From sequence record NC_022968.1: a stretch of 64,000 nucleotides of DNA; one strand, 5' to 3'. Source of the stretch: Escherichia phage 4MG. This document shows, piece by piece, positions 33,142 to 49,232 of this stretch. The notes beneath the pieces are model-generated. The model searched no databases, was not told the origin of the DNA, and saw nothing but the letters and a program-made list of their open reading frames with translations. The number at the start of each line of letters is the position of its first letter. Position 1 is the stretch's first letter. Position numbers and translations under genes: made by a program.

Positions 33142-34805
33142 CATTATACGCCACATCTCCTGAAGCGGGAGGATACAATCACCAGACCTGCGTGAAAGGT
33201 TGTACACCCTGTTAACATTCTGTCATGTCGATAAAACACCATTTCATAAACATATACCCCACAACATGTCGATGCTATAAACATGTCTGAAGTGACCCAG
33301 CAAATTAGCCGGGGACTAATCGCCTTGCGATATACCCACCCCTCCCCCGCCCGGAGGGAAACGTAAACAGGCCCCTCTCTTTGTGTTTTCTGGCACGAAA
33401 ATATCCTGAAGAGGCAGGGCCTCGAAGACAGGTGTTTCTGGGCGCAATCTCTATGTCTGATGTGTTAGACGGACAATCACAGCCCCTCCGGGTTGTCAAG
33501 GATCTTTACAAAATATCTGAGAGGTCTGACCACGAGACCCTATCGAGTTTTTGGCACGATGATTGCATGATGATTACGTGGCGCAACTAATGATTACAAG
33601 TGCAACTATTAGCAATGTGACAGTTTACACCTGTTACAGCACGATTTGCTCTTGACTTGCTTATATTTGTGTGAATGAGCCTATTTAACATAATACACGT
33701 TATGCGAACCACAGATCACCGGGAGACAGGCCATATAGTCACATATGTTATCATTGCATCAGTGAACCATACCACAAGGCAACCAATAGCCTGCTACATG
33801 TTACCACCACGACAGTTTCACGCTGTTATTATTCATTTTGTGGGGTGTTTTGTCGATGAGAATACAAATGATAATCATTCTGAATACGATTTCGATTTCA
33901 GTTTCGAAATGAAAACCATTCTCAAATGGAAAATATTTTGTAAATCTGCCATAAAAAGCTTGACACAGAGGGAAAAATGTGTTTAGCATTTAAGCCTATC
34001 TTGAGCATCCAACCGCAATGATAATCATTAACGTTAAGCCTTGCTACGCCTGGCTTTAATAGACTTTTCCTATCAATAAAAAGCTTGACAGTTTACACCT
34101 TTTCATGCTCAAGAAAACCGCTTTTCATCGGGCATCTAGCCCGGTTTACAACATGATTAATCATGATTTGTCAATCATTAAACATGATTAAACCGCTTTT
34201 GATCTTCATAACCTGGCGACACAATAACACGAGGGCGATCATGCGATAGCGTGATCGGTGTTATCGTGGCGAGGTTATAAAATACTTCAACTATGCAATA
34301 GTTGCATTATGAATTATTCATTGTTCTAGTCATCTTGTCTGTTAACGCTTAGGCGCTAACGAGCCACGATAACGCGAACGAAAACGATATTTATTATCGT
34401 TTGAGTTACCCTCGTGTTATTGTGTCGCTCGCTCCGCTCGCGCCACTCACCCCGATAACGCGAACGATATTTTTATTTGACAAAAGATGATTACTATGCT
34501 CAAAAAAGACAGTTCACACAAAGGGTTAGATGAGAAAAGTTATCATTTCAGGGCTTTTGCTTCGTATTCACTCAATTTGCATAAAAACACGGTGTTTATT
34601 CACTTGATAACCTGCGTTATCATTTTTGGGGTGTGAGTGAGTCAAAGGCGGGTAATGATACACGATTAAACGCAATATAACGCGTTTTGAGAGGGTTTAT
34701 CTGTTAGGCTTGCCGTTGTATGGCTTCAAAGAGATCTCTTTAAATTCACTTTTTTGCATAAAGACGGGTAAAGATTTAGTGTTTTGTTTGGGGTGTTGGT
34801 ATGAT

Positions 34806-34834
34806 ATGCAAAAAGCCGGGGATTATCCCGGCCT
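34806..34834 (-). terminator. rho-independent terminator (minus strand)
   Basis: Minus-strand hairpin GGCCGGGATAATCCCCGGC followed by TTTTTGCATAT, just after the stop of gene 34853-35062. Confidence 0.7.
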
Positions 34835-34852
34835 TACTTGGTGTGACTTTGA

Positions 34853-35945: not shown

Positions 35946-36358
35946 AATAGCTCTTTACATAACTTTACACTATTCACTGTTTGCATCTTTATGCATCGCT
36001 ATGCAATTCATTTCATGGTGAAATTACTTTTTAGGCGTTTTTCCGTGTCAAGCTATTTTTATATAGCCTTTAAACGTCCTGTAACGCGTTTTAAGCGGTT
36101 TTGCGTCCAGGCTGTACCCTAGCCCGTTTTAACGGAGATCTCCCCATATTCACTATTTTGCATAGGATTTGAGGGTGTAGTGATAATCATTCTCATCGCC
36201 CAGCGATTAGCCCCCGGCTAACTATCTAAATGATAGTGATTCTCATTACCGGAATAACAGGCACCTCCGGTGGCTTTCCTCCGGTGTCCATCGTTGCCGC
36301 TTCCACAAAAGAATAACAAAAACCGGGACAGAAAACAAGCCCCGGAATTGTAAAGATT

Positions 36359-44908: not shown

Positions 44909-45100
44909 ATGGAAAACGGGAAAGTAGTTGCAAGCGAAACAATGGTAACCCTGTACACCTGGGAGAGTGAGCGCGGAGCGCCCCAGGTTAGGATCGTGCC
45001 TTTGCCGTTTGCAGAACGTGCGAGCGTGTCCGGGTTTTACTATGGCACAAAGGCGGTGAGTGAGTCCGGCGCGGTGTTATGGGATAGCAGGGAAGACTAA
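44909..45100 (+). CDS. hypothetical small protein
   Basis: Trimmed to ATG after AGAGAGGTAAACGAA. Confidence 0.4.
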   Translation: MENGKVVASETMVTLYTWESERGAPQVRIVPLPFAERASVSGFYYGTKAVSESGAVLWDSRED

Positions 45101-45120
45101 AAAATCTTTTTGCCTGGGGC

Positions 45121-45149
45121 TTGCAATCCGTGCGGCCCTGGGTTATATT
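45121..45149 (+). promoter_or_regulatory. sigma70-type promoter with no ORF downstream
   Basis: TTGCAA - 17 nt - TATATT, preceded by a second copy of AAAATCTTTTTGCC; no RBS-led ORF follows. Confidence 0.45.
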
Positions 45150-45475
45150 TATCAGACAGAAGAGAAAACGCCACTCCACGGCGAAAAGGCGGGGCTAACG
45201 TACCGGGCGCGGGTGCCAGGTCGGAAGGTGGATCGCCGGTAGTTCGTCTGAATGACATTTGTAAAGATTTGTAAAGATGGTTGATCCTGGGGTTGGTTCT
45301 GCTATTATTATCACATAGCGGGAACATTGAAACCGGAGTACAAAACACCGGGGGTGCCTGTCATTCTGCAAATGATAATGATTATCATTCAACAAGCTAA
45401 ATGAGAATGCTTCTCATTCCGCATAAAAATTTATCTTGACATCGAGTGTGCTTGTGTGAGAAAATTATTGATCCC

Positions 45476-45681
45476 AAAAAATTTTTTCGCGTCTATAGAA
45501 AAAATACGTTTTTGAAACTGAAAAGTCGATCGAGAACCGGGCGCAAAAATTTTTTCGAGAGCGAGAAAAAATACGATCTCGATTTTGAAAAATCGATCGA
45601 GAACCCAATCTCTACCGAGAAAAATTTTTTGAGCAGTATAGAAAAAATACGATCTTGAAAACGAAAAAGTGATCGAGTACC
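45476..45681. repeat. three imperfect tandem direct repeats (~62 bp unit)
   Basis: Units at about 45476, 45545 and 45621 sharing AAAAATTTTTTCG...AGAAAAAATACG...TCGATCGAGAACC. Confidence 0.7.
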
Positions 45682-45907
45682 TGAAGTTTTACTCCCGAAA
45701 TATTGGAGATAAGTTTTGCAGTTTTTTGAGATATTTGTCCAGATGTGACAGTTGTTTTTGCAGTAAATTCATACAGTTACGTGCATGTTTTTGAGATATG
45801 TGGCAGGTTGTTTTCGAGATCTTTATTCACAAAATATTGGATTTACCTGGACACTTCAGCAGAGGCCGTTTCGAAAACCATTTCGATTTTCATTTTGATT
45901 TCTGGTT

Positions 45908-45942
45908 CAAAATATCCAGGCAAATATCAGGTCAAATATCAC
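45908..45942. repeat. short iteron-like repeats
   Basis: CAAAATATCCAGGCAAATATCAGGTCAAATATCAC (AAATATC three times). Confidence 0.5.
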
Positions 45943-45949
45943 ACGGTTT

Positions 45950-46774
45950 TCATTTCGGTTCCTTACCGAAAATATCTCTCCACATACAAATATCATAGCT
46001 CTTGTGGTGCGCCATCTCATACATCTGAATTTCTTCGTCTGTTGGATGCAAGATATCCATGAAAAGATGCTTTATATCTGAGGTGTTAAACGTTGAAGAA
46101 ACCCCGTCTATGGTGGTATGGATAGCCAGTTCACCATATGCCTTTGTCAGGTGGATACGGTCTTTACCATTCATGATGGTTACACGATCATCTTGCACTG
46201 CAATCCAACTATCCACACCGATAACCATATCACTTGGTGTGCTTGCATGGACCAAAAGCTCTATGACCGTGCTGGTTGGGATGATACTGTTCAGGTAATC
46301 CCTTTGCCACTCATTCCATCCACGCTCCTGGAGGCATCTACGCAATACAAAATCGCATCTAAGCTCGTTAGTGGCATCTCCAACGATATAGTTAAACTCA
46401 TCCGAGATCTCGGCTCTGTCCATTTTGTTGTCGAGGGATAAAATATCTTTTGCCATGTTATCAGCACGGCGAGCAACATTAATCAAGCTCCACGTCAAGG
46501 CCTCTATTTGACGTTCAAGCGCCTCAACGTAGGCTTGGTAATCAGCAATCTCAGAACTCTTTGCATAGGACTTAAGTTCTTCAAGCTCCGACGCGACCTT
46601 GCCCTTCTGCTTATCAAAGTCAGTTTCATCATCTGGATCACTTGAAAACTCAAGATATGATAGCTCATGCTCTGTGCTTTCATAGATCTTTTTCAGGTCT
46701 GTCTCGATGTCTGGGACATCAAACTTCTTTTTGTGGTGTGGGACGATCTCTGTTGTGTGAAATACTGTAGTCAT
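45950..46774 (-). CDS. hypothetical protein
   Basis: 274 aa ORF. Confidence 0.5.
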   Translation of the reverse strand: MTTVFHTTEIVPHHKKKFDVPDIETDLKKIYESTEHELSYLEFSSDPDDETDFDKQKGKVASELEELKSYAKSSEIADYQAYVEALERQIEALTWSLINVARRADNMAKDILSLDNKMDRAEISDEFNYIVGDATNELRCDFVLRRCLQERGWNEWQRDYLNSIIPTSTVIELLVHASTPSDMVIGVDSWIAVQDDRVTIMNGKDRIHLTKAYGELAIHTTIDGVSSTFNTSDIKHLFMDILHPTDEEIQMYEMAHHKSYDICMWRDIFGKEPK

Positions 46775-48963: not shown

Positions 48964-49232
48964 GTTGTTGTCGGCTCCGCGCCGCCCCCAGTTGATTCGT
49001 CGCATTTAGAAGCTCCTGTCGCCCATGCCTCCGAGCACATTGAACTTCCACACACATCTGAAGTGACTCACATCACTTCCTCTTGGAACTAACTATACAC
49101 TAACAAATCTTTAGATCAAGTGTTTTTTATAAAGATCTTATTTTTATTTGTTTATATCTTTATTATTTAGTTCTTTATTATATCGTAGGTCGTTTTTGTC
49201 ACCCCTCCACCTACGTTTTTGGCAGGGGTTGG

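Follow-up and report, generated by a model that had tools for sequence, protein, structure and literature searches.

Three conserved direct-repeat units in a non-coding module of Escherichia phage 4MG: a candidate cis-acting DNA element of origin type in the Vequintavirinae

The primary origin of phage T7 is preceded by tandem promoters, and a non-coding repeat region in the left terminal repeat of phage T5 has been proposed as an injection-stop region. In phage T4, an early promoter stands together with evenly spaced 12-nucleotide (nt) repeats at oriE, while each of oriF and oriG has a promoter next to an AT-rich unwinding element in which the transcript serves as priming R-loop; the more active T4 origins are located near switches of the transcribed strand (PMC3016281). 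In the literature searched, neither a replication origin nor a regulatory RNA or a cis-control region is named for rV5-like and phAPEC8-like phages. Here we report the computational analysis of three 62-nt direct-repeat units in Escherichia phage 4MG (NC_022968.1). They are located in a stretch of 64,000 nt, termed the window in the following, whose numbering is used throughout. A cis-acting DNA element of origin type fits these units best, since the locus is unique, contains several repeat classes including iterons spaced by 12 bp, places an AT-rich, partly curved array behind an early promoter, coincides with a local strand switch, is conserved above its flanks and shows lineage-specific replacement of repeats. 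We thus tentatively regard the units as the centre of a unique cis-acting element, likely a transcription-primed, iteron-bearing origin like T4 oriE, oriF and oriG, and assign a probability of roughly 37% to this reading.

The three imperfect direct repeats proposed in a first-pass annotation of the sequence could be recovered with coordinates right to within 1–2 nt (Table 1). With start-to-start spacings of 67 and 76, the units found by repeat search exhibit 71–77% identity to the reference copy. Global alignments of unit pairs score 34–36, compared to −5.4 ± 3.9 for shuffled units. AAAAATTTTTT is found at three sites (four strand matches, 0.14 expected) and nowhere else in the 64 kb. All three occurrences of AGAAAAAATACG in the 64 kb lie in the units, and TCGATCGAGAACC, present in two exact copies in units 1 and 2 and as the variant GTGATCGAGTACC in unit 3, is likewise unique to the locus. 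Due to the low identity and the indels, the units were not reported by Tandem Repeats Finder. Gaps of only 5–14 nt lie between them. Abutting units without unique spacers, their limited identity and the lack of a significant Rfam match to CRISPR (clustered regularly interspaced short palindromic repeats) families agree with the earlier statement that this is not a CRISPR array. Within the units no CRISPR family of Rfam matched, and a weak CRISPR-DR26 hit at 45880–45905 (E = 7) reached 16.7 bits compared to a gathering score of 39.

With 66% A+T, the stretch 45476–45681 belongs to the top 0.1–0.6% of AT-rich windows of the 64 kb. It is also the densest and best-phased A-tract stretch of the window: ten A-tracts in the Seunavirus units are phased at ~11 bp (R = 0.76), a value reached in 7 out of 2000 random placements. 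The A+T content of the window peaks elsewhere, with 82% over 100 bp at 49056–49180 between small minus-strand genes. The units further contain six GATC sites in 205 bp. This clustering was considered as an oriC-like feature and rejected; since the sites are just as dense near 38.1 kb and Henunavirus units are free of GATC, the density was not used as evidence. GATC is over-represented in the whole window (384 sites, 269 ± 15 expected), with dense clusters at 38.1–38.4 kb and in the units.

The non-coding nature of the stretch, also supposed in the first-pass annotation, follows from stop codons in all six frames of the window together with the differing frames of relatives' open reading frames (ORFs). 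Protein coding was rejected, as GAP31_043A, PVP-SE1 gp202 and KpS8 gp121 read the units in different frames; in addition, the unit lengths are not multiples of three. ORFs annotated over the stretch in several deposited genomes are probably spurious. A tRNA-Ile and a tRNA-Met annotated here in OY978796.1 (3164–3317 of the compared locus) are spurious as well, with ARAGORN finding no tRNA in the window or in that locus; many tRNA features of this record seem to be misplaced. At the RNA level, RNAalifold predicted no pairs on either strand for 24 aligned unit cores. For the whole three-unit region it returned weak folds of −12 and −11 kcal/mol over 240 columns with a penalising covariation term. 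A shared hairpin per unit, suggested by single-sequence folds, was discarded because the registers differ and RNAalifold finds nothing. A search of Rfam gave no match with E ≤ 1 and matches at chance level only up to E = 10. This lack of a shared RNA fold in the units indicates that selection acts on the primary sequence.

In a sequence search, the 1-kb stretch around the repeats matched the genomes of 84 phages from the subfamily Vequintavirinae. Cronobacter phage GAP31 (86%) and Enterobacter phage EC152 (93% over part) gave the best matches. Both belong to the genus Seunavirus, and judged by its sequence the window is that of a Seunavirus-like phage of this subfamily. The repeats are part of an ORF-free gap of ~850 bp (45101–45949), a conserved non-coding module in the centre of 20 kb of small, early-type genes on the minus strand. 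Three units with unequal spacing of 63–68 and 74–78 bp occur in Seunavirus, Mydovirus, Avunavirus, Henunavirus and Certrevirus. Three are also found beside very distant metagenomic homologues of the gene for a protein of 274 amino acids (aa) that adjoins the module, and rV5-like Vequintavirus contains three 57-nt units spaced 74 and 65 bp. In every genus, each of the units has an ortholog of its own. The DNA identity of the units between the window and GAP31, PVP-SE1, KpS8, Av-05 and CR8 amounts to 95.7, 86.8, 80.2, 72.8 and 62.7%, compared to 79, 61, 56, 56 and 49% for the adjacent 274-aa gene, whose protein is 24–50% identical between lineages. By this measure, the ~850-bp module appears to be under stronger selection than the neighbouring genes. 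The universally kept core of the units comprises ~40 bp: AATACG, a T-rich and GAAAA stretch, and then TCGATCGAG(A/T)(A/C)CC (here TCGATCGAGAACC). We infer protein binding at the units on the DNA level.

A pattern scan of IMG/VR yielded mostly chance matches in GC-rich contigs; Vequintavirinae contigs alone were useful. Among 5,426 E. coli genomes no host homologue could be matched, and the literature searched on these phages (origin, small RNAs, repeats) does not describe the module.

The P1–P2 part of the module is kept more widely, namely in the phAPEC8-like and phi92-like phages, which belong to the Stephanstirmvirinae. The phAPEC8 module retains P1, RNA 1, TTTGTAAAGA, P2, RNA 2, four palindromes, two TTTGAGATAA and two AAATATC. 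In the phAPEC8-like phages the slot of the units is occupied by a different AT-rich repeat family, which is the pattern expected if lineage-specific sites co-evolve with a binding protein. The 274-aa gene is not adjacent to the module in rV5-like or phAPEC8-like phages. The gene slot upstream of P1 also varies by lineage: it contains phiTE_079 in phiTE, and phAPEC8 has an unrelated ORF of 88 aa there that is not annotated. Since neither neighbouring gene is conserved across all lineages, the module is self-contained.

Comparison with the relatives also revealed a constant copy number of three, with RUS_R7 (PQ002170.1) as one doubtful exception; free variation among isolates, which would have spoken against a functional array, was not observed. 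It is extremely improbable that the units are a recent functionless tandem duplication or an expanding and contracting repeat of the type III antitoxin (pseudo-ToxI) kind. Direct repeats in a non-coding stretch would suit such a drifting repeat, and the relative phiTE does contain an expandable pseudo-ToxI repeat, but the units are orthologous per genus, fixed in number and spacing and only 71–77% alike. The pseudo-ToxI locus of phiTE is located at 106.7 kb compared to 39 kb for the module, and no ToxI match was found in any compared locus. Due to the different position and the missing sequence match, homology to it was rejected.

The record of RUS_R7 contains only two units. It was opened at the A5T6 of units 1 and 2 and carries a 91-nt end overlap annotated as attL/attR. 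As the record was opened exactly there and the overlap is of assembler type, the two-unit count may be an assembly artefact. Similarly, the record of EC152 (PP681140.1) was opened in unit 3, with 8 nt (ATCGAGTA) missing at the junction. Both breaks could reflect assembly trouble or population heterogeneity at the locus. They could also be taken as hints on a packaging site (pac or cos) recognised by terminase, in which the repeats would act as three boxes on bent DNA, similar to lambda cosB or SPP1 pac. The uniqueness of the cis site, its three repeats and the DNA curvature would be in accordance with this. We nevertheless consider a packaging site very unlikely: the 514-bp direct terminal repeat of Mydovirus KPP-1 was mapped at 116,316–116,829, ~8.5 kb from the locus (PMC9862379), and the Certrevirus phages CB7 and phiTE are circularly permuted without preferred ends (PMC7344957). 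Both observations contradict a genome terminus or cos site here. Additionally, the terminase genes are distant and the ends of RUS_R7 carry the assembler-type overlap.

Table 1. Features of the module and its two neighbouring genes in window coordinates; strand cells are empty where no strand is given.
Feature	Position	Strand	Basis and remarks
Small gene DUF7170 (PF23776), 63 aa	44909..45100	+	left neighbour, just upstream of P1
P1 (TTGCAA, 17 nt, TATATT)	45121..45149	+	promoter scan; all lineages
Candidate structured small RNA 1	45156..45250	+	~95 nt, GC-rich, downstream of P1
Intrinsic terminator, CGCCGTGGAGTGGCG then T-run	45169..45183	-	terminator scan; conserved in alignment; annotated terminator in phiTE
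Tandem TTTGTAAAGA, two copies	45258..45277		repeat searches; conserved in alignment
P2	45281..45308	+	promoter scan; alignment
Candidate hairpin RNA 2	~45315-45370	+	downstream of P2, loop GAGACAAACACC
Palindromes TGATAATGATTATCA (45373-87) and TGAGAATGCTTCTCA (45402-16)	45373..45416		upstream of P3
P3 (TTGACA, 18 nt, TG-n-GAAAAT)	45436..45465	+	10/12 matches, extended -10
Repeat unit 1	45477..45538		AAAAATTTTTT 45477-87, AGAAAAAATACG 45497-508, TCGATCGAGAACC 45526-38
Repeat unit 2	45544..45605		A5T6 45545-55, AGAAAAAATACG 45564-75, TCGATCGAGAACC 45593-605
Repeat unit 3	45620..45681		A5T6 45620-30, AGAAAAAATACG 45640-51, GTGATCGAGTACC 45669-81
Variable segment, TTTGAGATA-type repeats and 30-nt repeat pair	45717..45821		repeat search, motif scan; TTTGAGATA at 45725 and 45790, TTCGAGATC at 45813; 30-nt pair 45717-45746 and 45782-45811
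~12-bp-period repeats, AAACCATTTCGA / CATTTCGATTTT type	45866..45901		Tandem Repeats Finder 45879-45901, period 12; conserved block
Three AAATATC iterons, 12-bp spacing	45910..45940	+	just past stop codon of 274-aa gene; at 45910, 45922, 45934; Tandem Repeats Finder 45910-45940, period 12, 2.5 copies
274-aa gene, function unassigned, phrog_12959	45950..46774	-	right neighbour of module

Downstream of the units, the degenerate repeats and the three AAATATC iterons indicated by the first-pass annotation could be located as TTTGAGATA/TTCGAGATC repeats and a triplet of AAATATC (Table 1). TTTGAGATA(A/T) occurs in two to three copies in other genera and in phAPEC8. All lineages contain two to five AAATATC iterons at this position, even if the flanking sequences fail to align, and the second array with a period of ~12 bp is also conserved in all of them. 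In the window, AAATATC occurs 28 times compared to 10 expected, with a local cluster of five in 85 bp. Two copies of this cluster, at 45970 and 45988, fall inside the 3' end of the 274-aa gene, where they encode a conserved Asp-Ile and may be present for coding reasons. With three units, three AAATATC and two copies of the 12-bp repeat, direct repeats are clustered at a single unique site, as in iteron-type origins. The repeats adjoin an AT-rich region, and two sets of evenly spaced ~12-nt repeats as known from oriE are available at 45879–45901 and 45910–45940.

Absent from the first-pass annotation was the context of the repeats: they begin at the predicted start of a conserved sigma-70 promoter within the larger non-coding module. 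An alignment of 45095–45480 from eight lineages revealed three plus-strand sigma-70 promoters, P1–P3, with kept hexamers and diverged spacers. Their orientation is opposite to that of the surrounding genes. By visual reading, P1 in phiTE and phAPEC8 fits the early-promoter consensus published for the family (PMC7344957). The hexamers of P3 are promoter-like in Seuna-, Mydo-, Avuna- and Henunavirus with a diverging spacer and doubtful in Certrevirus. With a predicted start near 45472, at the beginning of unit 1, P3 is directed into the AT-rich element as in a transcription-primed origin, an argument from consensus and conservation. Minus-strand sigma-70 promoters in the units, with TATTTT as −10, were considered and dismissed, since they do not appear in the scan and the −10 is lost in Mydovirus (visual reading).

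P1 and P2 precede two RNA candidates. For RNA 1, present in Vequintavirinae and Stephanstirmvirinae, the consensus fold comprises 16–18 pairs, one to two of them compensatory, with a G-U pair workable on the plus strand only and an apical stem of varying length; no Rfam match was found for it. The hairpin of RNA 2 exhibits the conserved loop GAGACAA(A/T)CACC on stems that differ between lineages. A duplication of the P2 and RNA 2 element was observed in the rV5-like phage Bas53 (3840–4030 of the compared locus).

As an alternative, the units might form the main part of a non-coding RNA transcribed from P3, which would be the last of three small-RNA genes in a row and act as sponge or decoy for a host RNA-binding protein or as antisense to the long 3' tail of the minus-strand operon. 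We regard this explanation as doubtful. Three conserved plus-strand sigma-70 promoters, of which P3 starts exactly at unit 1, are what it would predict. The two upstream RNAs show signs of conserved structure with their compensatory pairs and the G-U pair restricted to the plus strand. Further, each Seunavirus unit contains a U6 run and an A-rich, ARN-like run, and a decoy repeat RNA is already known with the pseudo-ToxI of phiTE from the same subfamily (PMC3475682). The units themselves, however, have no conserved secondary structure on either strand and no Rfam match, and no conserved terminator follows unit 3 by scan and visual reading. In Certrevirus the U-rich and A-rich tracts are GC-rich and P3 is doubtful too, and the ~11-bp phasing of A-tracts is a property of DNA, not of RNA.

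Between RNA 2 and P3, palindromes of the AAATGAGAATGATTCTCATT type occur in one to four copies in every lineage. The Fur 7-1-7 consensus, TGATAATNATTATCA, was reportedly described by de Lorenzo in 1987 and by Baichoo and Helmann in 2002. Compared to this consensus, the first palindrome of the window matches at 14 of 14 positions, and those of other lineages show one to two mismatches.

The palindromes and the promoter orientation are also relevant for a second alternative. The module could be a transcription boundary or regulatory hub, in which convergent P1–P3 and tandem weak minus-strand terminators curb read-through of the upstream minus-strand early operon, the cores and palindromes being operators for early-transcription shut-off. 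It is located between two minus-strand gene blocks and contains the only plus-strand promoters for kilobases. The strong conserved minus-strand terminator (45183–45169) closes it on the left, the palindromic boxes in one to four copies are operator-like, and on the minus strand several units can fold into an AU-rich hairpin with TATTTTTT behind it. The terminator scan, however, found none inside the units (none in 45470–45690), where hairpins are weak, variable and out of register between units, with unit 1 having none on the minus strand (−0.7 kcal/mol). The T-run is lost in Certre- and Henunavirus. A terminator stem would not need the strong conservation of TCGATCGAGAACC, and a good terminator exists already 300 nt further. 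We consider a boundary function of the module unlikely.

The earlier suggestion of an iteron-type origin or protein-binding array is favoured by the conserved primary sequence, the uniqueness, the fixed number, the AT-richness and the iterons. For an origin at the units, we propose the following speculative course. Early in infection, host RNA polymerase would start at P3, possibly also at P1 and P2, and proceed rightward into the AT-rich three-unit region, which would serve for unwinding and protein loading. An R-loop formed by the P3 transcript could then prime synthesis of the leading strand, similar to T4 oriF and oriG. The ~40-bp cores and the 12-bp-spaced iterons would be bound by phage or host proteins with an organising or regulatory role in initiation, as has been proposed for the iterons of T4 oriE, and the Fur-like palindromes before P3 might act as a gate operated by a host regulator.

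Several findings weigh against an origin. Neither a cognate initiator nor a Rep-like protein could be found, and no conserved DnaA or IHF consensus sites, the host-factor sites of iteron origins, were detected across ten lineages. In Certrevirus the A5T6 tract and the spacer are swapped for GC-rich sequence. The phasing of A-tracts is significant only in Seunavirus and one metagenomic relative and not in Mydo-, Avuna-, Henuna- and Certrevirus, so that it was ruled out as a universal property. The GC skew in the window merely tracks the gene strand. The iterons of oriE have no proven role in T4 either (PMC3016281). Further, a transposon study of the related phage Bas54 reported another intergenic region of ~2 kb as insertion-free and does not mention the present locus.

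In the sister phage Bas53 (MZ501083), where the module occupies 79.9–80.9 kb, this insertion-free region is ~10 kb from the module. In the window an ORF-poor stretch of low GC is found at 33990–34850, where plus- and minus-strand gene blocks converge; by position it may correspond to the Bas54 insertion-free region and to the terminal repeat of KPP-1. A repeat pair of ~100 nt (34666–34760 and 36070–36164, 1404 bp apart) flanks two small genes there.

The neighbouring genes were also inspected. For the 274-aa protein no recognisable DNA-binding fold and no family assignment was obtained; its structure model, with a pLDDT (predicted local distance difference test) of 68, gave only generic helical matches. 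The protein family is small and phage-only (40 clusters). In the record of Salmonella phage 40 (KR296694.1), the protein P0018 is labelled 'cytosine-specific DNA methyltransferase'. As this 163-aa fragment shares 94% identity with the N-terminal part of the 274-aa protein, the label probably reflects a mis-annotation or a frameshifted fusion. The DUF7170 gene is the lone plus-strand gene inside the minus-strand block. Its copy is 94% identical in some Klebsiella phages and only 60% in others, suggesting exchange.

Rv5-like and phAPEC8-like phages are widely proposed for phage therapy and biocontrol, and the locus offers a precise candidate with defined promoters, repeat cores and iterons that are individually mutable. 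With an origin here, the replication strategy could be mapped and replicating vectors or attenuated phages could be designed. Decoy RNAs, if encoded, would represent a new kind of host-takeover tool. The possible host Fur boxes would tie infection to iron availability. In a wider and rather improbable version, the module might be a self-contained non-coding hub of Vequintavirinae and Stephanstirmvirinae, with two new small-RNA families under early promoters, Fur boxes that tie P3 activity, and hence replication start or early control at the units, to host iron, and units co-evolving with a phage DNA-binding protein. If so, the palindrome arrays of T5 would point to an overlooked general use of Fur by virulent enterobacterial phages.

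Compared to the described systems, the locus shares most with the T4 origins. Similar to oriE, a host-type early promoter is located near short repeats with a period of ~12 bp (here AAATATC three times and CATTTCGATTTT twice), the repeats are kept in syntenic regions of relatives, both strands are transcribed, and the genome is that of a large, permuted, virulent myovirus (PMC3016281). In contrast to oriE, there is no sequence similarity, homologues of repEA and repEB were not noticed, with no specific search made for them, and the 4MG locus adds three long units (62–75 bp), two small-RNA candidates and Fur-like palindromes. As at oriF, oriG and the T7 primary origin, a promoter (P3) fires straight into an AT-rich segment, here of ~200 bp; tandem promoters stand upstream, as in T7. 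The promoters are plain sigma-70 promoters in 4MG compared to MotA-dependent ones in T4 or phage-polymerase promoters. The T4 unwinding element needs no specific sequence, whereas the ~40-bp cores of the 4MG units are strongly conserved.

Features shared with lambda ori, P1 oriR and R6K gamma are the location of direct repeats next to AT-rich DNA, an intrinsic curvature and the overlap of the iterons with the end of a neighbouring gene. Classical iterons measure 17–22 bp with 20–25 bp spacing and are served by a recognisable Rep encoded in cis, whereas the 4MG units are ~65–75 bp apart and the locus differs in having no conserved DnaA or IHF boxes and no Rep-like protein that could be found. 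At its inner end, the left terminal repeat of T5 likewise has a non-coding stretch, which combines several direct-repeat families with an array of Fur-box-like palindromes (AAATGAGAATGAT...CATTT; T5-like phage, 1490–1640 of the compared locus). Four palindromes were observed in this T5-like phage, accompanied by GTCGGATTTGCACA in seven copies and by two DnaA boxes of consensus sequence. These repeats and boxes set it apart from the 4MG locus, as does its position in the terminal repeat; the genomes of the phages considered here are permuted or carry a terminal repeat at another site. The pseudo-ToxI of phiTE, from the same subfamily, is also a non-coding, transcribed direct repeat. It differs by its other locus, near-identical 36-nt repeats arranged head-to-tail, a variable copy number and a lack of sequence similarity. 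Should the 4MG locus be an origin, it would belong to a known class composed of promoter, unwinding region and iterons, distinguished by unusually long, sequence-conserved units and by Fur-like boxes.

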